DNA of 64,000 nucleotides from a virus. The stretch lies in IMG/VR virus record IMGVR_UViG_3300007735_000794, positions 1 through 64,000 of that record; one strand, 5' to 3'. Under the pieces are notes generated by a model. The model saw only the letters and a program-made list of their open reading frames with translations. It ran no database searches and was not told the origin of the DNA. Shown piece by piece: positions 21,250 through 44,031 of the stretch. A program made the position numbers and the translations under genes. Each line of letters opens with the position of its first letter. Position 1 is the first letter of the stretch.

Positions 21250-21385
21250 GATCTCTCCCACTTGTTCGGCACTTGTTGCCGATTGTTGCTAGACACCCGG
21301 GAGGGTGGGAATAAGGGTGGCGGGGATTTGACCCGCCCGGGGAGGATTCCCCTCTTAATCCATTATTCCTCTGGATTATACCCAG

Positions 21386-21415
21386 ATTATATCTTTGAGT
21401 TTTTGGTTCACACGT
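21386..21415 (-). promoter_or_regulatory. early-type promoter (GTGTGA-N16-TATAAT) for the 21249 gene
   Basis: + strand ATTATA 21386-21391, TCACAC 21408-21413. Confidence 0.7.
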
Positions 21416-21481
21416 CGATGGAGATGGGAAGTTTTGTGCTGCGAAAATGCGCTGACGCTCGCCGCGCTTGAAGCTCACATG

Positions 21482-21544
21482 AAGCACTTGACACCCACTT
21501 CACGCTGACGCTGAGGAGAAAGCACTTGACAGACACTTCACGCT
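21482..21544 (+). repeat. 25-bp imperfect direct repeat containing TTGACA
   Basis: AAGCACTTGACAcccACTTCACGCT / AAGCACTTGACAgacACTTCACGCT, 38-bp period. Confidence 0.75.
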
Positions 21545-21923
21545 CCTCATGAACTTGACGTTCCACAAATGTCCGCGGCAGACACACGTCGCCTCGCTCA
21601 TTGTCGGGCTGAAGTGTGAAGTGCTGCACACGCTGCGCGTTGCGACTCCGAGCGCGGCGAGGTGCGGGCTGATGCAGCTTGACATGAAGCGCACGCTTGA
21701 GACGCTGTCGTTTGACTGTGAAGCAGTGTAGGGGCACGTTGCGCTGCTCAGCGTCTGAGATGCAGTGCTGCTCGATAGACACGTCAGACCTCCCATTGCG
21801 CAGCTGTGCTGCGTCTATGCTGCTACGCACGCTGATGTCGCAGTCGTGCGTCAAACAGCGCACAGGGCACACGAACTGAATCGTGAACCCGTGCACAGTG
21901 ACAGCTCCGCTGCTGCCAAATAG

Positions 21924-21953
21924 ATTATAACATGCAGTTTCTGTTGCGCACGC
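21924..21953 (-). promoter_or_regulatory. early-type promoter (GTGCGC-N16-TATAAT), leftward
   Basis: + strand ATTATA 21924-21929, GCGCAC 21946-21951. Confidence 0.7.
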
Positions 21954-22047
21954 TGCCACAACCGGTGCGCAGCGCAGAGAACAATCGAAGCGTCACGCAG
22001 ATGATGCGTGTCTGCTGCTGCAGCTGACGTAGCCGCCGCCCTGTCCC

Positions 22048-22076: not shown

Positions 22077-22184
22077 GAGCGGCCCTAGGGCAGCGGGGCG
22101 CCCCCTGTAGGGTCTCCCCCGAGCCCACCCGGACAGGCTCAGTGGGGGTCTGAAGCGGGGCTGCGTGCGCCCTAGTCTCCGCGC

Positions 22185-22373
22185 GCTTCCCGGGAATTTT
22201 CAACGACTTCTGACATCGTATCAACGATGTCAACAAGCGTCGCGTTGTCTAAGCTAGCAAATAACATGCTTCCCGGGAATTTTCAACGACTTCTGACATT
22301 TATGCAGCACGAGATTCTTCTAAACAACAGCTGTTCAAACTTTTCTTCCCGGGAAAGTTGACGAACTTTTGAC
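22185..22373 (+). repeat. 32-bp perfect direct repeat x2 plus degenerate third copy, palindromic core TTCCCGGGAA
   Basis: GCTTCCCGGGAATTTTCAACGACTTCTGACAT at 22185 and 22268; core again at 22346 and 23026. Confidence 0.9.
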
Positions 22374-22395
22374 TTGCATTAAGATAATTAATGCT

Positions 22396-22476
22396 ATGTT
22401 GATATCAAACACAAACCTTAGAAGATTGATTGCTGAATCGATAGAAAGCGGCATATTAATGATAACAACTTGTTGA
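22396..22476 (+). pseudogene. leader-only remnant of the LRxLIxE family (26 aa)
   Basis: MLISNTNLRRLIAES then early stop; upstream sequence duplicates that of 23062. Confidence 0.6.
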
Positions 22477-23061: not shown

Positions 23062-23712
23062 ATGTTGATATCTGCGCGCAAATTAAAATCGATGATTGCT
23101 GAAGCAGCAAGCAATGATTTGCTTGATGATGATCTTGTTCTTTTAATTGAAGAGTTTGCTAATCTTTCTAAAGACTGCGCAACGTTTGACGATATTAGCG
23201 AAGAAGGCATGTTGATACTGAAAATGATTCGTAAACTTGCAAGAAGTGGTGATGATGATCGCTATTTTAGTTGGATTCTGCGTCAAGATCTCACGCGGAA
23301 AATTTCAATAAATGATATCGCACAATTTTCTGTTGGTGCTATGTTTCTTGATGAACGCTGTGGTGTAAGCGACAAAGACAAAATGAAATTTGAGCAAATT
23401 GACAAGTTGATATCAAAGCTATCTGTCCAGTTCGCTTTTCGAAAAGATGAATTGGAAATTGAAAAACTCTCTGAGGCGATTATTGCGCTGCTCCGCGAAA
23501 TTTATGGAATTAGCAGCTTAAACGGTTCTCCTTTCACTTACGCATCACTTGCATTCCGTTGCAAAAGCCTGCGTTGTTACAATCCTTACAACACACACGC
23601 AGCAATTCCAGTGTTTGTTCAAAGAACTCTGCTCTATTCATTAACTGGATACGTATTTGACTTGCAAAAATCAATTCATAATTTTTTGCGCTTCCACGAA
23701 GATCGCACTTAA
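23062..23712 (+). CDS. leader-family protein (putative virion internal protein), close paralog of 24996
   Basis: MLISARKLKSMIAEA; EEGMLILKMIRKLA. Confidence 0.8.
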   Translation: MLISARKLKSMIAEAASNDLLDDDLVLLIEEFANLSKDCATFDDISEEGMLILKMIRKLARSGDDDRYFSWILRQDLTRKISINDIAQFSVGAMFLDERCGVSDKDKMKFEQIDKLISKLSVQFAFRKDELEIEKLSEAIIALLREIYGISSLNGSPFTYASLAFRCKSLRCYNPYNTHAAIPVFVQRTLLYSLTGYVFDLQKSIHNFLRFHEDRT

Positions 23713-24357
23713 ATGATTATTTCTAGCACAAAATTGCGACGTCTGATTTATGAAGCAATTGATGATTTTGGCGAAGATCGTGAAGTAATTCAATCATTGT
23801 TTGATGAAGCTGTTTCTCGTTTTTTTGAATGCGGAGTATCGTTTTCTCGAGCAAATGTTGATGAAGAGTTTATTGTTGCGTCAAAACAATTAATCACACT
23901 TTTGGGATGGGACAGTGAAATGATTCGCGACATGATCGCAGATCATGAAAGTCTTGATCCTTACATGCAAGATTCTTTCTTTAGCGTTATGAAGTGGGTT
24001 TGCTTCAAATCTTTAAATAATATTGATGACGCTGCCGACCCAAATTTTTTGCAATTGAAAGAAGCAATTATTGAGCTTAAAAAAGCAATTGACAAAGAAG
24101 ACGAAGACAATGAAGATTTTGCTCCAGGCGATGCTGAACAAGATGATAATTTGTATGTCATAGAATTGCAGAAGATTTTGAGCTTATATCAACGCAATGA
24201 GAAGGTGAAAACATTATTGAACGCTCGAATACACGGCGTTGCTGATGGGTTTGTTGCGACGTTTATTAATCCTGGTTACAATGAATTTATTATTCCAAGC
24301 ATTGTAGACATAATTAAAAAGTTTGTTAGACGCAGTGTTAAGAGAACAATGATATGA
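23713..24357 (+). CDS. leader-family protein
   Basis: MIISSTKLRRLIYEA; EEFIVASKQL. Confidence 0.8.
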   Translation: MIISSTKLRRLIYEAIDDFGEDREVIQSLFDEAVSRFFECGVSFSRANVDEEFIVASKQLITLLGWDSEMIRDMIADHESLDPYMQDSFFSVMKWVCFKSLNNIDDAADPNFLQLKEAIIELKKAIDKEDEDNEDFAPGDAEQDDNLYVIELQKILSLYQRNEKVKTLLNARIHGVADGFVATFINPGYNEFIIPSIVDIIKKFVRRSVKRTMI

Positions 24358-24977
24358 TTATTTCTAGCACAAAATTGCGACGCTTGCTTAAGGAATCAAT
24401 GGACGCTAGCGTCCATGAAATCATTGAACAAATGTGTGAAATTTTTAAGCAAAACAATGCTAGAATGGATAAAACGCTAGCTGACCCTGATTTTATCTTT
24501 TTAGAAAATGCACTTTATGCAAGTTATGATGCTATTGCAGAATTCGATAGACGTATTGATGTGAAAAGTGTCATTGAAGATGCGATTGCTGGAAGCAACA
24601 TATCTTCGTATTCTGCTATTTGCTTGAGTCAAGCAATAGAATCAATTATTAGCGACAAATGCAGACACATAAATATCAATGACGCAAGAATAAAAGAAAT
24701 AGAGCAACTGCTCGAAGTAATATACGAATTTTACAAAACACAAGACTTTGAATACATCAAAAAAAATGAAAGTGAAATCATAAGTGTTGTAAAAAAGATA
24801 CATGAACTCGCCGCGGGTGTTTATAATGTCGATGAAGACTTTCGTGACTGCATGGGTAGAATGAGCGTGTCTTATTCAAGCGACATATTTATACATTTTG
24901 TTAGAAGCGTAGTCTATAGAATGACATCACATGATGCTGCGCGAGATGTTCGTCATTTTAATCGCGTCATGATATAA
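24354..24977 (+). CDS. leader-family protein
   Basis: MIISSTKLRRLLKES (leader DNA nearly identical to 23713). Confidence 0.8.
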   Translation: MIISSTKLRRLLKESMDASVHEIIEQMCEIFKQNNARMDKTLADPDFIFLENALYASYDAIAEFDRRIDVKSVIEDAIAGSNISSYSAICLSQAIESIISDKCRHININDARIKEIEQLLEVIYEFYKTQDFEYIKKNESEIISVVKKIHELAAGVYNVDEDFRDCMGRMSVSYSSDIFIHFVRSVVYRMTSHDAARDVRHFNRVMI

Positions 24978-24995
24978 GAGAACAACATAATAAAC

Positions 24996-25655
24996 ATGAA
25001 CATCACTTCACAACAACTTCGGCAAATGATTCGTGAAGCAGTCACGCACGACGATAACAATGAAATGCTCGATGATGATATTGCAGAATTGATTTATCAA
25101 TTTGAAGATGAAACGAAAGAATGTGTACGGTTTAGTGACATAAATGAATCTGGAATGCTTGCATTAAAGATGATAAGAAAACTCGCAAATGTGGGTGACT
25201 ATATAAAATTTATTGAATGGAATAACAAAAGATGGTCTTTTGACAAACCGTTTAATGACGTCTCACATAATTCATTGCTTGCTGCATTTTTTGAAGCGAA
25301 TGAACATATCACAGATAATGATAATCAAATGTTTGAAAAACTAAATAAATTGTTTGGCGAGCTAAAGTCACAGTTTGAAACTCACAAACAAGCAAAAAAG
25401 ATTTGCAACATTTCTATGAAAATTATTGATATTATACACCAGCGCTTTGGAAACATATATCATACAGACTTGCTAAATGCTTCATTTGCATATCATTGCA
25501 GCAATATGCGTCATTTTTCGCCATCTAATGCTGAGATTGTGCCTCTTTTTGTCAAAACAGTAATTCTTTATAGCACAAATGAAAATCATGCAGAGTTATT
25601 ATATCGTGTTCGAAGATTTATCGATGACATTAATTTAGACGCAGACGAAGATTAA
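24996..25655 (+). CDS. leader-family protein
   Basis: MNITSQQLRQMIREA; ESGMLALKMIRKLA. Confidence 0.8.
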   Translation: MNITSQQLRQMIREAVTHDDNNEMLDDDIAELIYQFEDETKECVRFSDINESGMLALKMIRKLANVGDYIKFIEWNNKRWSFDKPFNDVSHNSLLAAFFEANEHITDNDNQMFEKLNKLFGELKSQFETHKQAKKICNISMKIIDIIHQRFGNIYHTDLLNASFAYHCSNMRHFSPSNAEIVPLFVKTVILYSTNENHAELLYRVRRFIDDINLDADED

Positions 25656-26041
25656 CTCTTGTCGTTATATTTGTAGTCTAAATAAAATAGAGTACTTTTT
25701 GGCATAGACATCGGTTGAACTTTTACAATATCATGAATAAATAATGCTGAGTTTGCTCTTTGTATTTTTGGAAATACGAATTTTTGTGGCCTCGTTGATT
25801 TCCCACGCGTAAAGATTTGTGTTTCGTATATCGTGTGTATGCGTTCATCAATAAACACTTCCCAGTTTGGGAAGTTATTACTTGTCGCAATTTTAATGAT
25901 GGGCATGCATAGTTTTGGTGCTTCCCATTCGTGTTCAAGCCACACCTCATAAATTTCGCCCGCGACTATTTGTCGTTCTTCGTCTTTCAAAACTTTAACT
26001 GCGCTCTTAATCATTTTCATTTTTCTCTTTGCGAGAAACAT
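25652..26041 (-). CDS. hypothetical protein (IVAGEIYEV, KOW-like)
   Basis: Fills gap antisense; no leader. Confidence 0.6.
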   Translation of the reverse strand: MFLAKRKMKMIKSAVKVLKDEERQIVAGEIYEVWLEHEWEAPKLCMPIIKIATSNNFPNWEVFIDERIHTIYETQIFTRGKSTRPQKFVFPKIQRANSALFIHDIVKVQPMSMPKSTLFYLDYKYNDKS

Positions 26042-26204
26042 TTAATGAATGAATTTCACGAATGATTTCGTCACGATTGTTTTTGTTAAAGTCTAACAAT
26101 TCTTGTATCTTTCTTAATAAGTTTTCGTCAAGATCAGAATTGTCAAGTTCTTTGACAACATCGTCAGCCATTTCTTTGAATTTCGAAATCAAACTTTTTT
26201 CCAT
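26007..26204 (-). CDS. small helical protein
   Basis: GAGG SD; TGTAAA-N16-TATGAT upstream. Confidence 0.65.
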   Translation of the reverse strand: MEKSLISKFKEMADDVVKELDNSDLDENLLRKIQELLDFNKNNRDEIIREIHSLNVSRKEKNEND

Positions 26205-26294
26205 TTTTAACCTCGTATTTATCATACTGCTTCTTGCTAAAATTTACACTTTCTTTTCTCAAGCATATTTAATTGTATAAAGAGCACATGTTCT

Positions 26295-26933
26295 ATGAAA
26301 ATTACAAAATCAGAATTGCATCGTCTTATACGTGAAGAATTTGTTCGCCTTCGCGAAGGCAGTGATACAATTGGTAAACCACTGTTTAGTTTAGCAGGTC
26401 TTATGGGTCAAGACTATATGGGTGCACCAATCGCAAGATTAAAGCCCACAGATTTTGATGATTGGCGATCAAAATTGCCAGCAGAATTCAAAATGCCTTG
26501 CATCACAAAGCAGGGTGTTGCTGCCGTGCCCGTTTCAAAACAGATTTATATGCCTTTCTTAGAAGCATTCTATAAATTTATTGGGATGGGTGACGTAGAA
26601 GAAGGAGTAAACAAAGTATCTGGAATGTCAATCGACGAATTTCATAGCAAAATGGGATTATTCAAATCAATTGAAAAAGGCGCGGGCGCAGGCCAAGTTG
26701 CTGGCGCTTTAAGAATTCAAAAAAATATTTTACTAAACGATCTCATTGCGCAGCATGATGAATTTTCAAGATACCTTATATTTAAAATGACAAGATTCGG
26801 TGTTCCACAACCGTGGGTTTGGCCACTTGTTTCTGAACTAACATTTGAAGAGGTCACAGAAGAAATGATTACACCTGCAATGGCAGATCTTGACAAAGCT
26901 ATTATGTTTAGTCAATATGCGGCACAAAAGTAA
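26295..26933 (+). CDS. leader-bearing protein with unrelated body
   Basis: MKITKSELHRLIREEFVRLREG; ATATTTA upstream. Confidence 0.8.
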   Translation: MKITKSELHRLIREEFVRLREGSDTIGKPLFSLAGLMGQDYMGAPIARLKPTDFDDWRSKLPAEFKMPCITKQGVAAVPVSKQIYMPFLEAFYKFIGMGDVEEGVNKVSGMSIDEFHSKMGLFKSIEKGAGAGQVAGALRIQKNILLNDLIAQHDEFSRYLIFKMTRFGVPQPWVWPLVSELTFEEVTEEMITPAMADLDKAIMFSQYAAQK

Positions 26934-26938
26934 TTTGA

Positions 26939-27667
26939 ATGCTAATCACTTCTAGAAAACTTCGCAATCTTATCAAAGAAGCAATTAGTGATACAAATGA
27001 ATTACGTCAAGAAATTAGTGAAGACATTGAACAGATTCTTGTTTCTACTACAGGCAGAACAAACACATATGAAGACATAGCAACAAACAATGACTTGAAA
27101 CATTTGTTAAATGTGCTTTATGCAGATGCAAATGAAAATGACTACGAAGAATTTATGTGTGCATGGCGCGCATATACAACAGGATACAGCGCAGTGGATT
27201 CTGTGTTGCATAACGTTGAACAATATATAGAAAATTCTATCGACGTTATTGATGTTATCGCAGCAATTTTATTTAACAAACAACACAATGTCAGTTTACA
27301 CAGTCAGCATTTTGCGAACATTTCTTCAATGTTATATTTGTTGCATGATGCATGGGACGAGTTTAGCCACAGCAATACATCAGGTGAAAGAGCAAGAAGC
27401 TTGGCAAAAATAATTTATGAATTAAATGAAAAAATCGGCAGAGAATTTAGCAGCATGTATGGAAATATAAGCGCATTTGATGTAAATTTAAAGAAGCATT
27501 CGATTGTGTTTGAAGCGAAGAACAATATTTATTCATCACTTTGTCTATTTACAGACATTGTAAAAATGGGAAAAGCATTTGATAATTTTGTCTATCACTA
27601 CATTATCACGTCATTTTTAAAAAGTCACACTATTGAATTAGATCGATATATAAATCAGTTCAAATAA
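26939..27667 (+). CDS. leader-family protein
   Basis: MLITSRKLRNLIKEA. Confidence 0.8.
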   Translation: MLITSRKLRNLIKEAISDTNELRQEISEDIEQILVSTTGRTNTYEDIATNNDLKHLLNVLYADANENDYEEFMCAWRAYTTGYSAVDSVLHNVEQYIENSIDVIDVIAAILFNKQHNVSLHSQHFANISSMLYLLHDAWDEFSHSNTSGERARSLAKIIYELNEKIGREFSSMYGNISAFDVNLKKHSIVFEAKNNIYSSLCLFTDIVKMGKAFDNFVYHYIITSFLKSHTIELDRYINQFK

Positions 27668-27703
27668 AGAAACGGAATAATTAGCAGCATAAGATTGTGA
27701 TTA

Positions 27704-28384
27704 ATGTCTGATCGTGTGATTAAAGTATTCATTCGTCAATCGCTAAATGAAACTCGTGATCTTAATCTTGATGTTGATGAAGATATCAATATGCTTGTTA
27801 ATGAGATTATTGATTTAAAAATTCGTACTCCTGAGGATATTGATACAAATAATTTTGTTGTTACGACTATTATGAAAATGATTGCTGGATTTTTGACGCA
27901 AGGTGATTATGATGTAATAAGCGCTCGTGACTTGTTGTATGTTCCGCTTGTAAACAACACAAACTGTTTACCTAGCTTTGCTATGAAAATAGGAAGAATG
28001 TTATCATTTTATTTTGTCTTAAAAATTTGCAACATTAACAATGAAAAAATTAATATTCTTCGACAAAAAATTTTGTTGTGCAATGATTTGATAGACAAAT
28101 ATATTAGCGAAAATGATGATGAACAAACAATGAATAAGATTATTCATAATTTGAAATTTTTGCATGCATTTGTAAAAGAAATAACAGGCAACAATAGACA
28201 TTATATTACTTTGATTCTTGATCGAAATCATACAATTGGAAAATCATGCGAAGAGAATGTATTTCGATTTTCAAAATATCATTGCATTGCTTACGCGATA
28301 GACGTATTCAGAGAGTTAAAGGATAGTGAAATTCGCAGCATCGTTAAAGATGAAAAAGTGTATTCAACTATTAGGACTAACTAG
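27704..28384 (+). CDS. leader-family protein
   Basis: VIKVFIRQSLNET; TTIMKMIAGFL. Confidence 0.8.
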   Translation: MSDRVIKVFIRQSLNETRDLNLDVDEDINMLVNEIIDLKIRTPEDIDTNNFVVTTIMKMIAGFLTQGDYDVISARDLLYVPLVNNTNCLPSFAMKIGRMLSFYFVLKICNINNEKINILRQKILLCNDLIDKYISENDDEQTMNKIIHNLKFLHAFVKEITGNNRHYITLILDRNHTIGKSCEENVFRFSKYHCIAYAIDVFRELKDSEIRSIVKDEKVYSTIRTN

Positions 28385-28386
28385 CA

Positions 28387-29064
28387 ATGTTTAAAATGAA
28401 TTTACAAAATACAATTCGTTATTTTTTGCTTGAAGTAACAGAAGAAGAGAAGCTTGCAAAGCGCACAGACGAAGAAGACTTGTTGTTTTATGGTAAAGAA
28501 CTTTTACAATTTTTGTATGAGCACAAAATAAAAAACGATTGGTCGTATAAATCTTTCAAACATGAAATTAGTGATGAACTTGAGTTTATGATAAAAACAT
28601 ATGCAACATTAGCAGCAATGACATGTGATTCTATAAAATCAGTTGAAATGTTTAATAAACATGCAGGCTTTAGATCGTGGCCTTATCTCAGCCAAGATGT
28701 CATTTTTCAATTTATTTTTACAAAATTAGACTTGAAGATTGATGATCCACGTTTCAAAGAAATCATTTATCTTGGAAAAACAATCAGCGAAATGATAAAT
28801 GATTATGAATATATGTGCGCACGAAATGCTTCAAATGAAACATCGCTTCAACTCATTATTGTTAATCTAAAGAAACTGCGCGCATTGTGCAAAGATGTGT
28901 TCAAAGGAAATGATGAGTATGCGCGATGGATCGTATACGAGTGTAAAACAGACAAGTTCGATTTAACAGTGTATGTCGATAGAATTATGATTATGCACTG
29001 TATGATAACAGACTTTTCAGACATAAAACTAAAACGTGAATTGGAGAAAAGCTGTGGAATATAA
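28387..29064 (+). CDS. leader-family protein
   Basis: LQNTIRYFLLEV; ELEFMIKTYA. Confidence 0.8.
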   Translation: MFKMNLQNTIRYFLLEVTEEEKLAKRTDEEDLLFYGKELLQFLYEHKIKNDWSYKSFKHEISDELEFMIKTYATLAAMTCDSIKSVEMFNKHAGFRSWPYLSQDVIFQFIFTKLDLKIDDPRFKEIIYLGKTISEMINDYEYMCARNASNETSLQLIIVNLKKLRALCKDVFKGNDEYARWIVYECKTDKFDLTVYVDRIMIMHCMITDFSDIKLKRELEKSCGI

Positions 29065-29740
29065 TTTAAGGCATCTCCGTGAATTAATTCGTGAAGGTTT
29101 GCGTGCGCAAGAACGCGAACAAAAAATTGAAGAAAACAAAGAAGATATCACACATTTGCTAGATGAAATATGTCTGTTATGTAGGGGCGCAGAACACAGA
29201 CAAGACGTAGGTGAGAACGAAGAAGAACTAGTAATTGTGATTAAAATGACAGGTATATTGCTTTCAAAGATTTTTGATACTCCTGATCAAGTGTCTCATT
29301 TTCTTTTTGTTTCTAATATGCGCGTTAAAATGGGAAGAAATTTATTGTCTGTAATAATCACCGAGATTTGTACAATATTTTCATTAGAAAAGCTCAATAT
29401 AAAAGAAAATGATTCAATATTCGAAATGTCAGATGAATTAGTCAAAGAGTTAAATGAACTACTTCATCAATACTGTTTTGAGTATATTGAATGTATGCAA
29501 GAGATACTAGTTGCAGCACACAAATTAAATGATATGTTTGTTTTGTTTTGGAAAAATTCAAACGATCGTAAAAATGCGCAAGATTGTATATATTTTCTTA
29601 CATACACGTCACCGAGAAAAACAAGGCTGCTTAAAGACACACATTACCCAGGAATTAGACAATTTGCAGTAACACATAAGCTTGATGATGAAGACATAAC
29701 AGATATCGTGTTTAATGAACAGATCACTTCGAAAAGATAA
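29054..29740 (+). CDS. leader-family protein
   Basis: GTG start after GGAG; LRHLRELIREG; ELVIVIKMTG. Confidence 0.75.
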   Translation: MEYNLRHLRELIREGLRAQEREQKIEENKEDITHLLDEICLLCRGAEHRQDVGENEEELVIVIKMTGILLSKIFDTPDQVSHFLFVSNMRVKMGRNLLSVIITEICTIFSLEKLNIKENDSIFEMSDELVKELNELLHQYCFEYIECMQEILVAAHKLNDMFVLFWKNSNDRKNAQDCIYFLTYTSPRKTRLLKDTHYPGIRQFAVTHKLDDEDITDIVFNEQITSKR

Positions 29741-29748
29741 TTATCAGT

Positions 29749-30357
29749 ATGATTCGTCAAATAATTAGAGAAGTACTTCGCAATGAAGAGGTTGATGACA
29801 TTGTCACGTTGATCTGGAATTTGCGTGATAGATTCGAAGAGCAGGGAAATGATTTTAGAAATGTTGAAGTAGATGAAGAATTTCAACTATCAGTAAAAAT
29901 GTTATCTTCATTAATACGAAATAACAAAGAAAAGCTTTTAAACGCATGGCGCACAATTGATGACATTAATCTAGATGCATTTTCAAATGAAGACAATGCA
30001 TTCATTGATTTCTTGTTTTGGCAAAATTACAAAATTCTTAACAAAATAGACTTAAGTAATGAAAATTTTATGAAGTTAATATCACAAATTGAATTATTAT
30101 CAAAATACATAGACGGTCAAGGCCCAAAACATAACAAAATAATGTACATGAATATGATTGCAGAGAATGCATTAAAAATGTTTGAAAATTGTGAATTCGA
30201 CTATACGCATGAAGATACTTTTGGACGATATGAGCATGACGGTTTTATAATATCAATTTTTAATGGAAAATCAAGTCAAGCTGAGGACGTTATCGATGTA
30301 TTAGATCGTGAATATACACACCTTTTAAGGGCGCGAGGCGAAAAAGATTACTCATGA
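29749..30357 (+). CDS. leader-family protein
   Basis: MIRQIIREV; EEFQLSVKMLSSLI. Confidence 0.8.
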   Translation: MIRQIIREVLRNEEVDDIVTLIWNLRDRFEEQGNDFRNVEVDEEFQLSVKMLSSLIRNNKEKLLNAWRTIDDINLDAFSNEDNAFIDFLFWQNYKILNKIDLSNENFMKLISQIELLSKYIDGQGPKHNKIMYMNMIAENALKMFENCEFDYTHEDTFGRYEHDGFIISIFNGKSSQAEDVIDVLDREYTHLLRARGEKDYS

Positions 30358-30965
30358 CATCGACACAAACATTGCGCAGCATGATACGTGAAGCATTGCT
30401 TCAAGACGTCGGTTATGAAGAAGAGTTTATTGCTGATGCACAAGTTGTGCTTTCAGAAATGGTAAAGATCTTAATTGATAACAATTCTCATATATTTGAT
30501 GCAGTTAAAAATGAAGAATTTCGATTATCAGCAAGAATGCTTGCGAATATGATTTGTGGCGAATTTCAAAGTTATCCACTTGCACGAAAGCTAATTTCTA
30601 GTGTTATATGTCATGATGAGTCAGTCATACATGGAAGTACTATTTTAATAATGATCGAAGATTATATTTGTTGGTTAGTTTATGCAAAAATAAACAATAT
30701 TGATACAGAACACGTTGATTGCAGTGAAGCAATCAAGCGCATTAAGCAGCTTGACATACTTAACTCGCAAGGCTATGAAATTTATGAACAAATAGACTGC
30801 TGTAAAAAGATCATTGCAGCATTCAAAAAATCAAATTTGAATTTTATTCGAGCAGATGATGCATTGCGTGGTTTAATACGCATATCATTGAGCGAAGATG
30901 ATATTCATGTTGATTATAACGTATTAAGCATGATAATCATCGATTCATATTATGCAATTTCATAA
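30354..30965 (+). CDS. leader-family protein
   Basis: MTSTQTLRSMIREA; EEFRLSARMLA. Confidence 0.8.
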   Translation: MTSTQTLRSMIREALLQDVGYEEEFIADAQVVLSEMVKILIDNNSHIFDAVKNEEFRLSARMLANMICGEFQSYPLARKLISSVICHDESVIHGSTILIMIEDYICWLVYAKINNIDTEHVDCSEAIKRIKQLDILNSQGYEIYEQIDCCKKIIAAFKKSNLNFIRADDALRGLIRISLSEDDIHVDYNVLSMIIIDSYYAIS

Positions 30966-31572
30966 CTTTTTAATAAAGCAACTTATTCGCGAAGGTTTCT
31001 TTTCAGATCAAGAAGCAGAAGCAGAGCTACGTAGTGGAATAAGAGAAATATTGGTGTATATTTCTGATATGTTTAAAATACAAGATACAACATGCATTCA
31101 TGAGTTAGTTGGTAACAATGAATTCAATACAAGCGTCAAAATGATTGTTGGGCTGTTGTTGCAAGAATTCAAAGCAAGATCATCAGCGCAGTATTTTTTG
31201 GGAGAAATATTTCACGAAACATTCAGCATAGATAGAGCACGAGCAATCGAAGAAAAGCTTGTTTTAGAGCTACAACAATATATTACTTGGAAAATATGTG
31301 AGATTCAAATGAATGTTCAAATAAACGATCATCACATACAGACTGCAATAGAGCTTATAAAGAAAATCTCAGATATGCACAAAGCATCAATGTTTTTTTC
31401 GGCGCGTGAAAAATTTATTGAGCGTCAAATGTTTAAGCGTATTCGTGAAGAATTGCTTGCTGGTAAAATAGACATAAATGCGATTGGTCGAGTTGCGTAT
31501 TATGGATTTCTAATCTCACAATTTAATAGCTGGGATATTGATTATCAATATATTGACAATGACTTGTATTAA
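30952..31572 (+). CDS. leader-family protein
   Basis: LIKQLIREG; NEFNTSVKMIVGLL. Confidence 0.8.
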   Translation: MQFHNFLIKQLIREGFFSDQEAEAELRSGIREILVYISDMFKIQDTTCIHELVGNNEFNTSVKMIVGLLLQEFKARSSAQYFLGEIFHETFSIDRARAIEEKLVLELQQYITWKICEIQMNVQINDHHIQTAIELIKKISDMHKASMFFSAREKFIERQMFKRIREELLAGKIDINAIGRVAYYGFLISQFNSWDIDYQYIDNDLY

Positions 31573-31936
31573 GTTTTTCTCGTATAAATTCATCATTCAG
31601 ATGTTTTAACATCGCAATCACACTGTCATTAAGTTTATTATTTGCTGCATTATCACCCGCATATACGTCATTTTGCCTGTCGCGGATAAATGATGACATT
31701 AAGCCGTCATCGTGTATCTCTATTTCACAATAGAATTTTTTATTGCTCCACGATAGAACAATTGTCTTTGTATCATTAGTGTCTTCACCAAACGCAACTT
31801 GCGGCAAGTCAAGTGTATTGCAAAAATCATTTTGAAGTTGTCGCCAAGATTTGACAACATGCGCAGCATGAGATTTTGAAATAACGCTTTCTAAGTTATT
31901 TATACAATTTTCAAATTCAAGTTCATTTTTTTCCAT
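31523..31936 (-). CDS. hypothetical protein
   Basis: Antisense insert; ATG 31936 overlaps upstream gene end. Confidence 0.65.
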   Translation of the reverse strand: MEKNELEFENCINNLESVISKSHAAHVVKSWRQLQNDFCNTLDLPQVAFGEDTNDTKTIVLSWSNKKFYCEIEIHDDGLMSSFIRDRQNDVYAGDNAANNKLNDSVIAMLKHLNDEFIREKLNTSHCQYIDNQYPSY

Positions 31937-32237
31937 GTAATCCAAGCCATTCATTAAGTTCACGAAGCAATACAAGTCTTTCAAGAAACACAAAATAAAA
32001 ATTCCAATCATCAACAATCATTTGTGGACTATCATCATGATTTATGCAAAGCAATTGTGCTCGCTTGCCAATAATCAATTCTAACATTGCATTTTTCGCA
32101 TTAGTCTGCTCAATAAGCTCACGAGTGCTTATTGTAGTTGAATTATACTTTGCGTCATAATTGTAATGTGAATGTATATTTTCTAATGAAATAATTTCAC
32201 GTCGCAGTTCATCAGATGATTCGTATTTAGCTAACAT
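31923..32237 (-). CDS. hypothetical protein
   Basis: TGTAAA-N15-TATTAT upstream. Confidence 0.65.
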   Translation of the reverse strand: MLAKYESSDELRREIISLENIHSHYNYDAKYNSTTISTRELIEQTNAKNAMLELIIGKRAQLLCINHDDSPQMIVDDWNFYFVFLERLVLLRELNEWLGLHGKK

Positions 32238-32308
32238 TATTTGAATAATAACTATAATAGAAGCGTTTACAACGTTGATGATAATTAATTTATATGACGA
32301 TGTGTTAA

Positions 32309-33471
32309 ATGCTAATTGAAAGCAAAGAACTAAGACGTTTAATTTGTGAATCGATTCAAGCTGAGATGATTATCGAACTTTTTGCGCCCTTTGACCGGCG
32401 TTTTTTTGATTCGCTACATTCAAAAAAAATTAGTAGACAAAAGCTTGAAGATTTTGAATTTGCTCTCAAAGGTGCGAATTCATTTCTTAGCAAGGAAGGT
32501 GAGGATATTCATCCAAAACAAAAAGAAAGTTTTGTCTATAATGTCTTGTACGAATCACATCATCCAAGCTCGAGAATTATTGCAGACATGCTCGGCGCAT
32601 ATGCACGAGGCATATCATTTGACGAAATAATACAAAAAACATTCGAATCTGGTCATCATTTTGCAAGTTTTTTTAAAGACGCAGAAAACATAAAAAAAAA
32701 GTAAATGAAGCAAAACTCTCTCCGCTTTACACGTGCGAAGACATTAAAAATATTGTCAAAGATCGGCAAGAAATTGCAGATGACGTCGCATTTGTTATAG
32801 AGCCGATTATCGAAATTGAAAAATACAAATCATATTGTTATAATAATCCAACACTCATCGCATCAGATGAAGAAATAAAATATTACGAAGATTTACAAAA
32901 AGAAAAAAATTTATCTGTTAAAGTTGCTGCTTCGCTCATTTGGAATTCATTAAATCATTCATACATCTACTATGATCATGTGCTTATTGATGTGATTGTT
33001 CGTGAATTTTTGGCACATGCTGGAGTAATGCCTGGTTACTTACGACATGCGACAACATGTGATATAGTCATTGAAATTGAACAATTACGAGACGCAGAAT
33101 CAGAGCAACAATTGCGTGAAAATACAAGCATCACAAATGTCATGCTTGACAATGAAAAAATAGAATTTGCTGCGACAGTTGCAGAATGCTTTGATGATTA
33201 TCGTTTTATCCCAATTTTTAAGCTCGACATTTTTAGCAGTGAGTACAAAGAATTTATTAATGAACTCACACTTGGATGCAAACAATATTTGAATTTGCTT
33301 GGAATCGAACAATCAATTGACAATATAAACATTTTATTGTCTTTAAATGACAAAATCAGAAATACAATACAGACAAATTGTTCTATCTTTTTCGATGTTG
33401 TGAAGTCGTTTATGCAATCAAAAAGTATAAACGACGCATTATTTAGTGCAAAATTTAAATTGCAATTCTAG
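32309..33471 (+). CDS. leader-family polyprotein split by a -1 frameshift at A9 / A_AAA_AAG (32692-32701)
   Basis: 0-frame stops at 32704; -1 frame open 32701-33471 with no ATG/GTG/TTG before 32980, and carries family core LSVKVAASLI. Confidence 0.75.
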
Positions 33472-33655
33472 TCCACAATTGTGAATATTTTTGAATGATT
33501 GTAAGCGCAAGCGATTTTGCAGATTCACAATCGCTTGTTTGAAGAATAACGTTCACAGAATTCTTAAGATAATCAGAAACAATTGTCTTTTGTTCTAGCT
33601 TCGCATTCTCATATTGTTTAAGGCGATTTTCAAGCCACTGGAAGTCGTTAGACAT
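33455..33655 (-). CDS. small hypothetical protein
   Basis: AGGG SD; TGTAAA-N16-TATTAT upstream. Confidence 0.65.
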   Translation of the reverse strand: MSNDFQWLENRLKQYENAKLEQKTIVSDYLKNSVNVILQTSDCESAKSLALTIIQKYSQLWTRIAI

Positions 33656-33723
33656 TTAACACCCTATTGTTATAATAATTTGTGAATCGATCATTTACAA
33701 GAGATTAGCGAATATTTATTGTT

Positions 33724-34584
33724 ATGTTATTGTCAAAGAATCAACTTCGTAAAATAATTTGTGAAGCGTATGAATTGAATAAAAGAGCACCTGATGGTTA
33801 TCTTGCTTTTAACGCAGATGAAATTGATATTGTCAAAAATGCAATGGAAAATTATCAAAATGACAAATTATATCAAATTCAGCAGCTTTTGCAAAATAAC
33901 AATGACGAAGAATTTAAATTTGAATGGAAAGAGTTCGAATTCGCAATGAAAGTTGTTCATACAATCATAGATAAAAAGGCGGGAACAAACAAAGAAACTT
34001 GTAAACGATTTGAAAAGCTAATTAGATTAGTCGATCCAGATTTGAAATTCCAAAATTTTTGGAATCTTGTCGGTGCAAAATATTATTATGATATTGAAAA
34101 TGAGACTGCACTCGACATTATGTATGGGTATGATATGCAGTCATCATATAGCTTTCCAAATCAAGATCCTGACGCAATTCATGAGGCTTTAGGAATGAAC
34201 ACAATCAAATCAAAATCATTAAGACACATACGCGAATCATTGAGCGACATGTATAAACGTGTAAGTGATGTAGAAACAAATGGATATTTTGCTAATTTCG
34301 CGCGCGAGTTTTTAGCGAAATATGATGATATGTTTAATGATTATGAACAATTTACAGAAGAAGACAAATTACAGCTACGTATATACTTGAGTGTATTTGC
34401 GCAAGAAATTAAAGATGCAGAGAGCAATTGGGACAGATTAGAACAAATAAATGCACTCATACAGATTTTTATCGACGCAAATTTTAAGACGCCTGCTGCA
34501 TTCGCACACATGGTCATGGGTGTTAAGCGAAAAGATTACACAGAATTTGATGATTTTGTTAATCTATCGGATAAAGTTAAATGA
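33724..34584 (+). CDS. leader-family protein (probably two domains)
   Basis: MLLSKNQLRKIICEA; EFEFAMKVV; internal LRHIRES. Confidence 0.8.
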   Translation: MLLSKNQLRKIICEAYELNKRAPDGYLAFNADEIDIVKNAMENYQNDKLYQIQQLLQNNNDEEFKFEWKEFEFAMKVVHTIIDKKAGTNKETCKRFEKLIRLVDPDLKFQNFWNLVGAKYYYDIENETALDIMYGYDMQSSYSFPNQDPDAIHEALGMNTIKSKSLRHIRESLSDMYKRVSDVETNGYFANFAREFLAKYDDMFNDYEQFTEEDKLQLRIYLSVFAQEIKDAESNWDRLEQINALIQIFIDANFKTPAAFAHMVMGVKRKDYTEFDDFVNLSDKVK

Positions 34585-36677
34585 GCCTAAATCTTCAACA
34601 AGCGATTCGCGAGATTTTGTCAAACAAAAATCATTTGTATGAAAGTACATTAGAAGCGAAAAAAGAAATCGCAGCGTATATCAACGACTCAGTCATTTTT
34701 GACATTATGAAAAAAAATAAAGATGCAAATTACGATGATTTACTTCGCGTTACGTCATCAGAAAAAGAAGATTTATTTGTTACATGCAAAATTATAGCAG
34801 CGCTTATAAAAGAGTTTTTTGAAGAAAAATCTCTTCTTGATGATGGAAATTCTATATTTGTCTTTGTTGAGTCTGTATTCTACCTTACAGGTATCGAACA
34901 GAATTATTCGATATCAGCTTTTTATTATCTTATCGTAGATTTTTACGATGAATTAAAATTGGGCAAGACGCGTTTTGTTGATAGAGAAAATAAAGTAAGC
35001 GCAGTGGAATATACGTTTGATTGTTACTTTGTAATAGAGAATGCTATGCTAAACGAGTCAGAAGATCTCGATGAAAAAGAACAGCTTACGACAGCAGAGG
35101 CATTGGATTTTATTAATGATTCAATCATAGCTGTCATTGCGTCAAGAGAAGACACGCGAGCAGGCGTAGATATTGATATTGATAACGAAATAGGCGATAA
35201 TGATTTTGACATTAACAAATTAATCAAAGTAACAAGCGCCGAAAAAGATGATTTATTTATAACTTGCAAAATTGCTTCACGTGTTTTCGATAAAAAGCTG
35301 TTTTTAAACAATTGTTGGGGTCTAGCTGCACTTTTTGGTAGAACACGTTACGCAACAACAGACCCGTTTATTTTGCTAATTTATGCATTTCATAAAGAAG
35401 AAGTGCACAAAAAACCATTTGTAGAAAAAACATTCAATGATTGGTTTGAAGTCGATGATGTCAACATTTTAACAGAATCGGTAGAAAATGATATTCGCGA
35501 CGAAGAAGAAATAAGAACAGAAATAGAAACTATTATTAACAACTCAATAATCAGAGACTTCGGAGAATATTCGAATGCAATTGAATGCGGTGTAGATACT
35601 GATTTTTTAACGCAACAAGAACAAGACGAAGTATTGATTACATGTAAGATTCTAGAACGAACGTTTAATGAACTCACAAGAATGAATGGTAAGTATTTCT
35701 GGGCTTGTGTGCATGATACGCTTAAAAATTTGGAAATTTTGAATTTAAGAAAAATACTTGACTGCATTCACTTGATACATCAGGGAAGGATTACAGAAGC
35801 CGAACACGATCTTTCATTTGATCTATTTGACAGATGTAGAAAAGAAAAATTAGATGAATCAAATGAAATGTTAAACACTAATGCAGAAGAGCTTACGCAT
35901 GAGATTGCTGAATTTATAAATTATTCTATCATTAAACAACTTTATGATGGGACAGTATACGAGATTACGCGCCGCAAACTTACAAATGACGAAGCTAGTG
36001 AATTGTTTGTTACTTGCAAGATTCTTTCAAAATTGTATAACGATTTGTATAACTTGGAACCAAAAAATTCTCACCGTGATTTCTGGGATGTTTCGTATTC
36101 ATCGCTTGCTTGTCTTGATTCGATTGCAAATAGACGAGAAATTTGTGAAGTTATTTATAAATGTTGGAATGGACATGAAGATTTTGCGAAAGAGTATATC
36201 AAGACGACAATTTTTGAAGTTCAAGTAGCACAAAAACTTGATGAAAGTGTAGATTACACTGAGCTTCGCAATAAATATGATGATGTAATAGACGAATGTG
36301 TAGCATTTATGAAAGACAGCGATCTTGATGTTCTCATGCACGAAATAACAAAAGGTGTAGATGAATTCCAAGAAAGATATGAAAGAATTAAGATTTCAAG
36401 AGCAAATGCATCAAAACTATACATCATATGCAAAATAATTTATTCATTTGCAAAAGACGCGTATATTCTACTTTATATGTTAGATCCCGACTTGGCAACA
36501 TCTGGCGGTTGCATCAAAGGAATGATTAATGCATATGTTTATAGAGAAAAAAAGTTCTTAGGTGATTCGACGCATCAAAGAAGTCTTAGTTATGATTTGC
36601 TTTTGAATCTCATCAATAAAATAGAAAGTTATAAATCACTCGAAGAATCAGAACTTTTTGAGGTAAAAGATGAGTAA
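34581..36677 (+). CDS. leader-family five-domain polyprotein
   Basis: Five (L/V)(F/L/Y)(V/I)(T/I)CKI cores separated by LNES, LTES, LDES, LDES. Confidence 0.85.
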   Translation: MSLNLQQAIREILSNKNHLYESTLEAKKEIAAYINDSVIFDIMKKNKDANYDDLLRVTSSEKEDLFVTCKIIAALIKEFFEEKSLLDDGNSIFVFVESVFYLTGIEQNYSISAFYYLIVDFYDELKLGKTRFVDRENKVSAVEYTFDCYFVIENAMLNESEDLDEKEQLTTAEALDFINDSIIAVIASREDTRAGVDIDIDNEIGDNDFDINKLIKVTSAEKDDLFITCKIASRVFDKKLFLNNCWGLAALFGRTRYATTDPFILLIYAFHKEEVHKKPFVEKTFNDWFEVDDVNILTESVENDIRDEEEIRTEIETIINNSIIRDFGEYSNAIECGVDTDFLTQQEQDEVLITCKILERTFNELTRMNGKYFWACVHDTLKNLEILNLRKILDCIHLIHQGRITEAEHDLSFDLFDRCRKEKLDESNEMLNTNAEELTHEIAEFINYSIIKQLYDGTVYEITRRKLTNDEASELFVTCKILSKLYNDLYNLEPKNSHRDFWDVSYSSLACLDSIANRREICEVIYKCWNGHEDFAKEYIKTTIFEVQVAQKLDESVDYTELRNKYDDVIDECVAFMKDSDLDVLMHEITKGVDEFQERYERIKISRANASKLYIICKIIYSFAKDAYILLYMLDPDLATSGGCIKGMINAYVYREKKFLGDSTHQRSLSYDLLLNLINKIESYKSLEESELFEVKDE

Positions 36678-38208
36678 ATATATCGAAAGCGCATCTGAAC
36701 GATATTTCGATCCAATTTTTGAAGAGCTCACAGAATTCGTTGAAGAGCTTGATTTAAAATCATTTGATAATGCGACTAAAATTACACGAAAGCAAGCAGA
36801 AGAGCTTGATTTTGCAATCAAAGTGATTGCAAAATTGACTCGTGAATTTTGGGAACATACTGTGGATAAAACTCCTGATTTATTTCCACCAATCGAGAGT
36901 TACTATTGGGCTTCTAAAACATCGTCTTATTATGCAAATTTGAGAATATTTTTTAGATTTTGCGGAATTGCAAATTCATCAGTTTTTGCTGGTTTAGTGT
37001 CATATTATCAAATGGGATATGACCACGACATCATTAAACATACTTGGAAGATCAAGGACGATACGAATCTTAATGAATCTCATGATAAAAATTTATTAGA
37101 ACAACAATATAATGATCTTGTAGATGAGCTTGTAACATACATAAGCTATTCATCTTTGGCAGAAATTATTCCATATGAAAATTTGCAACAAAATAAAATT
37201 ACACATGAACAAGCAAATGAAATATTTTATGTTTGCAAAGTAATTGCATATTACATGAATAAGATTTCTAGCGCTTTAAAAGATAGAAATCATTTAGAAA
37301 AAGTTGAAGTAGCTTCGCGCATAAGGAACATTTTACGTCAATGCGGGATAACAGATTTGCGACTCTTGACAATTTTTTCACGTGTTGTCGTAGCTGTCAT
37401 GAATAATCAAGATGCAGATTTAAAAACTGCATTTAATAACAATATTACACAAATCATTAATGAAGCTATACAGAAAAATAGCGGAGAATGCTGCCCAATA
37501 TGTGGTGCAGAAGAAAATGTGTCGTGTGAACATTATCCAACAACGAATGAGCAAGATGAGATTTTAAGCGCTGCATTTTATGCTTATCTAGAAGACGAAA
37601 CATCGACTGCTTGGGCAATAAAAATCGCAGCGTCTGTTGTTGATTTAAATTTGTATAGGCGCTATATAGATGAGCTATTCAAAGGTTACACAGAAATGAC
37701 GCCAGAAAAGCGAATGCTTCATTTTGTCGCAGGTGTAATTCGTGATGCAGTTGAATTTCATGATGAAAATGCATCATTTGCATATTCAACTTACATTAAG
37801 TTTGCAGATCGCATTATTGATTATTTGCAAAACAAAGGCACATTACATGAATTCATTTCTGAAGCGTTAATGATTGATGACATTGGTCAACATTCTGAAT
37901 TTATGTTGGCACAGCGTGCATTCATAAATGAAATCAAAGAAGTCATTGAGCAACTTGATCCATTTATATTTGCAAATGCACGTCATACTTCAAGAATCGA
38001 ATTAAGAAATGATTTTGATTTTGCGTTAAAACTTATCAATGCGATGTTTATAAAATTTTGTCAAGAAACATCAACAAAGTATGACTACAGTTTAATCTAT
38101 CGTGTTATAAGTTCGACGCAACTTTATTCTAGTAATTATGATGTGATAGAAGTAGCAGACAATATAGACGAAACGCGTCGCGGCACATTTAAATGGAATA
38201 ATACATAA
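36670..38208 (+). CDS. family four-domain polyprotein
   Basis: Cores DFAIKVI, FYVCKVI, AWAIKIA, DFALKLI; linkers LNES, INEA, ISEA. Confidence 0.85.
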   Translation: MSKYIESASERYFDPIFEELTEFVEELDLKSFDNATKITRKQAEELDFAIKVIAKLTREFWEHTVDKTPDLFPPIESYYWASKTSSYYANLRIFFRFCGIANSSVFAGLVSYYQMGYDHDIIKHTWKIKDDTNLNESHDKNLLEQQYNDLVDELVTYISYSSLAEIIPYENLQQNKITHEQANEIFYVCKVIAYYMNKISSALKDRNHLEKVEVASRIRNILRQCGITDLRLLTIFSRVVVAVMNNQDADLKTAFNNNITQIINEAIQKNSGECCPICGAEENVSCEHYPTTNEQDEILSAAFYAYLEDETSTAWAIKIAASVVDLNLYRRYIDELFKGYTEMTPEKRMLHFVAGVIRDAVEFHDENASFAYSTYIKFADRIIDYLQNKGTLHEFISEALMIDDIGQHSEFMLAQRAFINEIKEVIEQLDPFIFANARHTSRIELRNDFDFALKLINAMFIKFCQETSTKYDYSLIYRVISSTQLYSSNYDVIEVADNIDETRRGTFKWNNT

Positions 38209-38231: not shown

Positions 38232-39182
38232 TTAACGTCTCATACCTAATTTAGCAGGTCCGCCCAAGAATTGGCCAAATGCTTGATCTTCTACATCGCG
38301 CGTTTCGCTGAGTGCATCGAAGAATCCTTGTTCGAAAACTTCGCGACTTTGTGACGTATTTTCAATTTCCATAAGTAAAGTAACAAGATTTTCGGAATTT
38401 CTTGCAGCTTCTTTTAAAACTGCGTCGTAATACTTAGAAAGCACATCGCGAATTCTTTCTGCCATTGGCGCATTTTCTTGTTGCGCTTGCGCATAATTTA
38501 CTTGTGGCGTTAATCCAAGCAAATTTGCAAACCAGCCGTCCTCAGTTGCTCTAATCATATTAAGCGCAATTTGAAAATTGCTTATGAATGCTCGAGGATC
38601 GCTCTTCATAAGTCTACCAAGCTCTGCCCATACAAGCGGCAAAATTCTCATTCCAACACTCATTGCAGGAGCAACAAACTCTTCCATCAAAACTTTTGAA
38701 ACAGCTATTTTGACTTGTATTCTGTTCTTTTTTCCTGCAAGATCACGAACAGGGAAGTATTTTTGTTTTGTTTCTGGCGGCGGGTCTATTCCTGGCTCAT
38801 CTTCTGGAGCATTGCCCACAACACCCTTGTGTTTTTGTTTCGTTCGATTTGCAAGCGCATCATCGAACGCTTGATCAAAATCAAAATCATCATCTACGTC
38901 AGAGCTGTCTAATGCATTTAATATACTCTCGGGAGTTGCACCCTTAAATTGATCAAGTGTAACACCTCCCCGGGCTACCGGAGGAAGATTTACATTTTTT
39001 TGTCTTGTGCCAAGGTCGCCACCTTTTGGAAGCACTTCAACTTCTCCGCCGCCAGCGGGAGCATTAAGCAAATCTTCAAGTTCTTGCTCTTCTTTTGATA
39101 AAACTTTTGTTTTAAGCGGAGGATTATCAAAAGCTTCTTTTATAACTGCACGTATTGTTTTTCTTAGATTTCTAATTGACAT
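38232..39182 (-). CDS. leader-bearing hypothetical protein
   Basis: MSIRNLRKTIRAVIKEA. Confidence 0.8.
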   Translation of the reverse strand: MSIRNLRKTIRAVIKEAFDNPPLKTKVLSKEEQELEDLLNAPAGGGEVEVLPKGGDLGTRQKNVNLPPVARGGVTLDQFKGATPESILNALDSSDVDDDFDFDQAFDDALANRTKQKHKGVVGNAPEDEPGIDPPPETKQKYFPVRDLAGKKNRIQVKIAVSKVLMEEFVAPAMSVGMRILPLVWAELGRLMKSDPRAFISNFQIALNMIRATEDGWFANLLGLTPQVNYAQAQQENAPMAERIRDVLSKYYDAVLKEAARNSENLVTLLMEIENTSQSREVFEQGFFDALSETRDVEDQAFGQFLGGPAKLGMRR

Positions 39183-39189
39183 ATTGAAT

Positions 39190-39924
39190 TTAGCCTCTTA
39201 AGCGTGTATAGTCTACGCTATGTCTAGAATATTGGTTCCAAATATCGTTATCAAATTCATGACGACCGCGATCGTCGCCTGCAGCGCCCAGACGTTCTGC
39301 TTCGTAATGAATAAATGAGAACCACCAACCAAATTGTTTCATGATTGTATCAAATAAGACAGTATGCGCAAAGTCAAATTTTGATTCGTCAGTTATTCGA
39401 CAGACGACATCTGTCGAATTAAAGAGCTTTTCTAATAGTGACTCATCATCGTCTTCTATAATTTCATCACCAATTTCATTATAAAATGTAAATGGACATT
39501 TTGAAATATCATATTGAAATCCTGCTACAAGTTCAGTTGTAATAATCTCGAATGCATGCACGATCATTTTCACTAATTCTTTAGTGAGCGCCTTGCCAAG
39601 TTTTTTTGTTACGTCATCAGTACTTTCTGCATTTTTTAAGAATTCATTAGAAAGCTCTTTTGCAAATGAAATAATTATGCTTTTGATACTTGCGTCTGAT
39701 TTTAATGTCTCATTTGATATTCCAAAGCTTTTTGCTAGTTGCATGTATTTTGTAGTTAGACCTGACGCATATTTTTCTGCAATGTCATAAAATACTTCGC
39801 TTTTTGCAATTGTTGTTATGCTATTGAGAAAATTTGTAATTTCTTCATCTGACACGTCGTCGATGCCTTCGAGCATGAGGTGTCTGCGTATGAGCGATCT
39901 AAGAATTGTGTTTTTTATTTCCAT
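39190..39924 (-). CDS. leader-bearing acidic helical protein, paralog of 41947
   Basis: IKNTILRSLIRRHLMLEGIDD; TLK...IK pattern shared. Confidence 0.8.
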   Translation of the reverse strand: MEIKNTILRSLIRRHLMLEGIDDVSDEEITNFLNSITTIAKSEVFYDIAEKYASGLTTKYMQLAKSFGISNETLKSDASIKSIIISFAKELSNEFLKNAESTDDVTKKLGKALTKELVKMIVHAFEIITTELVAGFQYDISKCPFTFYNEIGDEIIEDDDESLLEKLFNSTDVVCRITDESKFDFAHTVLFDTIMKQFGWWFSFIHYEAERLGAAGDDRGRHEFDNDIWNQYSRHSVDYTRLRG

Positions 39925-39928
39925 TATT

Positions 39929-41863: not shown

Positions 41864-41946
41864 TTAATTCTCACAAGACAGAACAAGTTATTTATAACTA
41901 TACAAATGAGTGTCTAGAAAATAATCTTTTAGCAAAAATGTTATAG

Positions 41947-42618: not shown

Positions 42619-42655
42619 TAGTAACGCCACGAACAATTATTAAATATACAAACAG

Positions 42656-43165: not shown

Positions 43166-43226
43166 AAATCACACGTAATAAACAAAATATAATTCGTGTC
43201 ATGATATTTACACATATTTATAGAAT

Positions 43227-44030: not shown

Positions 44031-44031
44031 A

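Follow-up and report, generated by a model that had tools for sequence, protein, structure and literature searches.

Do the small genes packed into some 15 kb of a freshwater giant phage genome encode divergent copies of a single helical domain, and what could their products do? The locus lies in the first 64 kb of the linear 98,068-bp IMG/VR record IMGVR_UViG_3300007735_000794, from an uncultured phage; this whole stretch of 64,000 nucleotides is the window, and positions are those of the window unless stated otherwise. It is an array of 17 tightly packed open reading frames (ORFs) on the plus strand (23062-38208, ~15 kb), named below by their first nucleotide. A sequence-only reading of the window had proposed that the array holds more than 20 copies of one unrecognised helical domain, expanded by tandem duplication into a conserved scaffold with variable surfaces. 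Comparison of sequence profiles proves two families rather than one, here called S and M, and most of the genes carry a common N-terminal leader. On balance we favour, with about even confidence, the reading that S and M are acidic, all-α families without known relatives whose members are loaded into the phage head and trimmed there by a protease as internal proteins.

About 25 units could be delimited in the array: 15 ORFs, nine modules of polyproteins, and a hidden −1-frame module (32713-32979). The units are acidic throughout (isoelectric points 4.4-6.6, all except one at or below 5.75). They are adjacent and on the same strand, nearest paralogs are neighbours and modules are repeated within genes, which bears out the proposed expansion by tandem duplication. 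The S family comprises 11 stand-alone proteins of ~200 amino acids (aa). With leaders removed, each was matched by the profile of the other ten at a score reached by 0/200 shuffles (z scores of 5.5-16), and BLASTP alone links 23062 to 24996 (2e-36) and 23713 to 29749 (6e-7). The S genes are as follows.

23062..23712, plus strand: S member of 216 aa; leader MLISARKLKSMIAE followed by A, core EEGMLILKMI; leave-one-out score 27.8, 0/200 shuffles
23713..24357, plus strand: S member of 214 aa; core EEFIVASKQL; leave-one-out 0/200, z 5.5
24354..24977, plus strand: S member of 207 aa; Asn in place of Lys (DFIFLENAL); leave-one-out 0/200, z 9.5
24996..25655, plus strand: S member of 219 aa; core ESGMLALKMI; leave-one-out 0/200, z 12.6
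26939..27667, plus strand: S member of 242 aa; Asn in place of Lys; leave-one-out 0/200, z 6.2
27704..28384, plus strand: S member of 226 aa; core VVTTIMKMI; leave-one-out 0/200, z 5.6
28387..29064, plus strand: S member of 225 aa; core DELEFMIKTY; leave-one-out 0/200, z 12.0
29036..29740, plus strand: S member of 234 aa; core EELVIVIKMT; leave-one-out 0/200, z 10.5
29749..30357, plus strand: S member of 202 aa; core EEFQLSVKML; modelled with AlphaFold2
30354..30965, plus strand: S member of 203 aa; Arg in place of Lys (EEFRLSARML); leave-one-out 0/200, z 16.4
30952..31572, plus strand: S member of 206 aa; core NEFNTSVKMI; leave-one-out 0/200, z 14.0

The M family comprises at least nine modules of ~130 aa, found in two polyproteins and one single-module gene.

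32309..32704, plus strand: single M-like module with leader, 131 aa; core EDFEFALKGA; M profile z 6.4, 0/200
34581..36677, plus strand: 698-aa polyprotein, leader plus five M modules; junctions LYE/S, LNE/S, LTE/S, LDE/S and LDE/S (the slash marks the boundary)
36670..38208, plus strand: 512-aa polyprotein of four modules; junctions LNE/S, INE/A and ISE/A; modules 1 and 2 are M

The module profile recognises, in leave-one-out shuffles, seven polyprotein modules (0/200 for all five modules of 34581), the product of 32309, and three modules of a protein from outside the window, P0008. P0008 has 400 aa, comes from a Logan contig of 1,655 bp and is orthologous to the 512-aa polyprotein, with which it shares 41% identity. 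Among six-frame ORFs, 32309 was found by the M profile with an E value of 0.0036. Module 4 of 36670 was placed in M because of its BLASTP match to 32309 (8e-5), and it is also tied to the S core.

The motif that had suggested a single domain is present. The ten cores quoted in the sequence-only reading were all found, in frame, at the genes named for them, and a strict pattern, [ED][FLM]-x-h-[ASTCI]-h-K-h, has eight in-frame matches in the 15-kb array vs four when everything else in the 98-kb contig is translated in six frames; one of those four falls in a truncated copy at 22363. The Lys is present in 20 of the ~25 units. When the first 100 post-leader residues were aligned, K stood at this position in 19 of 23 units (the others having N, N, R and T). 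It is the sole invariant column among the nine M modules and is found in 8 of the 11 S proteins. The acidic helix described upstream of it was likewise recovered, with D in 8/11 S proteins and E in 8/9 M modules. Codons of the motif differ at synonymous sites, indicating conservation at the protein level. A DNA-level element such as a promoter or a recombination site was considered for both the Lys motif and the leader and rejected, as synonymous positions vary. A structural role is probable for the Lys, which could for instance pair with the conserved Glu of helix 1.

One S protein and one M module were modelled with AlphaFold, and both models are all-α, in agreement with the prediction of helical proteins. 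The S model (29749, AlphaFold2) reached a mean predicted local distance difference test (pLDDT) score of 79.9 and a predicted template-modelling (pTM) score of 0.75, with nine helices following a low-confidence leader helix; residues 1-11, the leader, are below pLDDT 50, and Lys50 lies within helix 43-56. The M model (34581 module 4) reached pLDDT 78.2 and pTM 0.76, with a disordered, low-confidence inter-module linker at 120-129. In both, a long acidic helix is followed by a short helix and then by a helix with the Lys at its centre, and confidence peaks on this Lys helix, the best-predicted element of the core.

Whether S and M descend from one ancestor was addressed by profile-profile comparison. 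This had been set beforehand as the test of the claim of one domain in more than 20 copies, and S against M scored no better than chance (hhalign E 0.42). The claim is not established as stated: leave-one-out profiles support two families and leave five units unplaced. Further hhalign comparisons gave E values of 0.17 and 0.06, the latter for the N-terminal half of S, and the real score was reached by 6 of 235 block shuffles; column and block shuffles that occasionally scored near 130 were set aside as artefact. The S and M profiles do not find each other in the six-frame database, and shuffle tests of S vs M with full-length profiles were negative. On these profile scores the link between S and M is below accepted significance and only suggestive. 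All of this suits the alternative that S and M are unrelated helical families sharing one leader-tagged array, the common stretch E-(F/L)-x-h-(S/T/A)-h-K-h being an ordinary amphipathic helix picked by eye; the array would then consist of two families of smaller size and, beside them, several leader-tagged proteins unrelated to either. We regard this as possible, though we lean against it. The best local alignment of the two profiles falls on the Lys helix, Lys on Lys. The S-core profile matches five of seven M cores at p <0.04 as well as the hidden module (0/300 shuffles), and it matches module 4 of 36670 with a z of 7.0, a module which BLASTP links to the M-recognised 32309; conversely, the core of the S member 29036 is also matched by the M-core profile (0/300 shuffles). 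Both models open alike, with a helix of ~20 residues, a short helix and the Lys helix, and the two families have strand, array, leader and acidity in common. A common origin thus stays plausible because of these weak, one-sided signals and the transitive link through 36670 module 4 and 32309: S and M are probably distant relatives, though not demonstrably so. Two further relationships were tried and not adopted. An internal duplication of S (N-half vs C-half, hhalign E 0.13) is unproven, and for the C-half of S vs M (E 0.4) the reversed M profile scores as well.

The picture of a conserved scaffold with variable surfaces found no support in the form proposed either, as no conserved core could be told apart from variable regions. 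Among S proteins, pairwise identity is 12-19% from one end of the domain to the other, and the leader alone is set apart, at 41%. In this phage lineage the leader reads L-R-x-L-I-R-E, then A, G or S. In most of the 17 genes its last residues are (I/L)-x-E, the next residue being A, S, G, V, E or I, and it is weak or atypical in 27704, 28387, 32980 and 36670 (only MSKYIE/S). Leader codons vary at synonymous sites, which indicates selection on the peptide. The leader pattern is N-terminal in 19 of the 116 ORFs of the contig vs 1 at control positions. The same kind of site, (I/L)-x-E then S/A, joins the modules of the polyproteins, and the profile boundaries coincide with it exactly: the envelopes of the five modules of 34581 (23-159, 161-299, 300-426, 427-555 and 557-698) lie at the L-x-E/S sites. 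P0008 retains the linker sites and has a full leader, LRHIIRE/M.

A relative that uses the leader, the jumbo phage G001 (171.5 kb), is one of the contigs with a leader-bearing homologue of the HEAT/LRV-repeat protein encoded beside the array. It encodes terminase, portal and T4-type head protease in a row; the protease matches PF03420 with 89 bits and phrog_207 at 3e-51. Two small leader-bearing ORFs of 150 and 105 aa lie directly downstream of it (61902-62731 of G001, minus strand; L011 1902-2731). No S or M members were found in G001.

Searches for known relatives bore out the statement that the domain is unrecognised, nothing credible being returned from Pfam, PHROGs, NCBIfam, PDB or BFVD. 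Foldseek found no match for the S and M models in PDB or BFVD, and a PDB sequence search with both family profiles gave only chance-level matches to designed helical proteins. No match reached any family cut-off in Pfam (nine array proteins) or NCBIfam (ten array proteins). Among PHROGs, tested with seven array proteins, none had E <0.01, the two weak hits being families of unknown function at E 0.014 and 0.038. No internal-protein family appeared among the Pfam, NCBIfam or PHROGs results for the array proteins tested. Leads from the Protein Atlas were rejected: feature scores were at most 0.87 and template-modelling (TM) scores were below 0.5 except for DUF29 (0.55, M module), which lacked Pfam support. 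The core profile run against 1.84 billion representative proteins gave 16 matches, 15 of which were the window's own and the remaining one P0008.

In T4, internal proteins reach the prohead core via a capsid-targeting sequence that gp21 removes (PMC5694885). Head packaging and trimming is the most likely role for the array products because the leader and linker motif is shared and because the leader-using relative G001 has a T4-type protease; packaging, cleavage, ejection and function are what we infer from these features. The leader would bring the precursors into the assembling prohead, where a protease of the T4 gp21 type would cut after Glu, taking leaders off and releasing single modules. 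The flexible leader and linker, of low confidence in the models, were counted in favour of such trimming. The mature acidic bundles would stay alongside the DNA inside the head and pass into the host when it is infected; there the diversified paralogs may act as a set of binders or inhibitors.

Several findings weigh against the favoured reading as a whole, among them the S-M comparisons given above, which fall short of accepted significance. Inside the domains (I/L)-x-E occurs 66 times vs 64 expected, so the site is not avoided; the motif alone is thus weak, and only its placement at boundaries speaks. The full leader of P0008 is missing from its ortholog 36670. The 98-kb fragment, rated 28% complete, yielded no gene for a protease, capsid or scaffold, and the protease is postulated from the one in the relative. 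Finally, the array is identical in samples from 2018 to 2025, with no sign of ongoing diversification.

A second alternative also places the proteins inside the head, with a structural role, as a scaffolding core or as an inner body of the phiKZ type in which many paralogs organise the DNA, and with no effectors aimed at host targets. T4 gp22 is acidic and all-helical, as the array proteins are predicted to be. The T4 scaffold gene holds the position directly after the head protease, which is where the small leader-bearing ORFs of G001 lie. Inner-body paralog families are also known from giant phages: PF12699 in phiKZ, and families A and B in SPN3US (PMC5694885). Against this, ~25 units at 12-19% identity exceed the diversity that a scaffold needs, no match to PF12699 or to scaffold PHROGs was obtained, and G001 has the leader without either family, which indicates that neither belongs to the lineage's core set of head components. 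We consider a structural role unlikely.

More doubtful still is the proposal that the leader is not a head-loading tag at all and that these are ordinary early cytoplasmic proteins, serving for example anti-defence or host takeover, whose conserved N-terminus has some other common purpose: it might dock them to a different part of the virion, signal degradation or localisation, or control translation. A sigma-70-like promoter ahead of the array would suit early expression. However, the junctions between polyprotein modules also have (I/L)-x-E then S/A, conserved in the ortholog P0008, and this placement fits release by proteolysis better than it fits docking or translational control; a signal at the RNA level is disfavoured by the synonymous variation in the leader, and the lineage has a T4-type protease.

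We give similarly poor prospects to the most elaborate version of the internal-protein reading, a capsid-delivered arsenal of more than 20 helical modules loaded by a common leader, some cut from polyproteins by the protease and 32309-33471 extended by slippage at a run of nine A residues (A9), each neutralising a different host defence or protein on injection; if true, the production of injected effectors as polyproteins would be a new way to pack many effectors.

Head-loaded and trimmed internal proteins would have close counterparts in known systems. Variable loci for internal proteins with leaders are a feature of T-even phages, and two such proteins of T4, IPII and IPIII, are basic. Like the array proteins, IPI, IPII, IPIII and Alt of T4 and other T-even phages have a short N-terminal leader ending in hydrophobic-x-Glu, then Ala, Ser or Gly; in both cases small proteins that are otherwise unlike one another have the leader in common, and their genes form variable clusters. 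A counterpart of gp21 is encoded by the leader-using relative G001. Unlike the T4 proteins, those of the array have no sequence or fold similarity to T4 internal protein families, are acidic where IPII and IPIII are basic, number ~25 units as against three or four, and include polyproteins of up to five modules. Giant phages also carry large paralog families in the head, such as the 20-member family B of SPN3US and the inner-body family PF12699 of phiKZ, and some giant-phage head paralogs, of unknown function, have N-terminal propeptides that the prohead protease removes (PMC5694885). The array resembles these in being a large and diverged set of paralogs, theirs residing in giant-phage heads. 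It differs in giving no PF12699 match (hmmscan of nine proteins, E up to 0.1), in a putative cleavage motif that is (I/L)-x-E as in T4 rather than the S/A/G-x-E of phiKZ, and in coming from a phage of another lineage, whose baseplate protein has relatives in phages of Flavobacterium and Microcystis.

The general theme of leader-tagged paralog families is therefore known from T4-like and giant phages, and what is distinct here is the combination of orphan helical families with a polyprotein layout, not a new principle. If the proteins are packaged and injected, ~15 kb of this genome would be devoted to a head cargo of some 25 diversified proteins, one of the larger sets described, with part of it delivered as polyproteins cut by the protease; the array would then offer a test bed for cargo loading by a short tag in giant phages, as well as a stock of small helical proteins, so far unexplored, with possible action against host defences. 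As S and M are orphans, any function found for them would be new.

Besides the S and M members, the array encodes several units without confident family: module 3 of 36670, the hidden module, and the following three ORFs.

26295..26933, plus strand: leader-bearing 212-aa protein of neither family; leader MKITKSELHRLIRE; without the Lys core and missed by the S and M profiles
32980..33471, plus strand: downstream unit of 163 aa, of neither family, in the frame of the hidden module; leader-like VLIDVIVRE/F, no Lys (EKIEFAATVA)
33724..34584, plus strand: leader-bearing 286-aa protein, weakly placed; core KEFEFAMKVV; S-core profile 6/300, missed by full-length profiles

Module 3 of 36670 (37465-37863) starts with a Cys-rich stretch (CCPICG...SCEH) instead of the acidic helix and matches neither family profile; this start may form a small metal site. 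The 36670 gene, with its short MSKYIE/S start, overlaps the 3' end of the 698-aa gene by 8 bases (36670-36677).

The hidden module depends on a change of frame at the end of 32309, for which two features are relevant.

32692..32700, plus strand: A9 run, A_AAA_AAA_AAG, where the 32309 ORF stops
32713..32979, plus strand, −1 frame: hidden module without a start codon of its own; core EKNLSVKVAASLI; S-core profile 0/300, z 3.5, missed by the M profile

A −1 shift at the A9 run would read ...IKKKVNE/AKL... into the next module, and the −1 frame is open from stop to stop over 32677-33468 (264 codons, two more modules). The run is crossed without insertion or deletion by contigs from three samples and two studies. 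An assembly error was considered and rejected because the contigs of the three samples agree, although a systematic homopolymer error would escape contigs. The A9 run represents either slippage or a fixed frameshift.

Ahead of the array, promoter-like direct repeats (TTCCCGGGAA...TTGAC...) occupy 22111-22473, and a mini-ORF lies behind one copy.

22414..22473, plus strand: truncated copy, a leader-only mini-ORF, MLISNTNLRRLIAES, with the same upstream sequence as gene 23062

Repeat copy number varies, since one Logan contig skips 83 bases (22184-22268). A promoter and terminator scan of the array gave nothing above shuffles.

Leader-bearing proteins of unrelated sequence flank the array, at 38232-45160 of the window and at genome position 95038-95682. 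One of them is a 644-aa HEAT/LRV-repeat protein (39929-41863, minus strand), whose homologues in other jumbo-phage contigs also have the leader. Between the leader-bearing flanking proteins lies a Pol-beta-like nucleotidyltransferase without leader (42656-43165; PF14792/PF14791).

The locus was sought in other sequence collections. Neither megablast of the array nor tblastn of the 512-aa polyprotein gave a match among 50,697 phage records; searches for related loci in viral contigs with 24996, 34581 and P0008, and in metagenomes of the Joint Genome Institute (JGI) with P0008, also gave none. Metagenomes from 2018, 2020 and 2025, viral and riverine, contain the identical sequence; with one single-nucleotide polymorphism in 16.5 kb among four sequencing runs from three studies, it is essentially one sequence. 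None of the sequencing runs listed for it was of RNA.

The CheckV estimate of 28% completeness implies a genome of ~350 kb. The contig encodes PhoH and a gp6-like baseplate wedge protein, the closest relatives of which (~30% identity) belong to Flavobacterium phage immuto, Microcystis phage Mel-JY01 and a 484-kb uncultured phage. Within the array, on the minus strand at 25616-26041, a 129-aa ORF aligns with N-terminal sequence of a major head protein of the T4 type (phrog_138, residues 58-117 of 444, E 5e-8); the match crosses a TAA stop and looks like a fragment or remnant of a capsid gene. The guanine-plus-cytosine (GC) content of the contig is ~33% from 22 kb onward. The left 22 kb have higher GC and few long ORFs, and a 60% GC island lies at 20001-22000, the surrounding contig having 33-45% GC.

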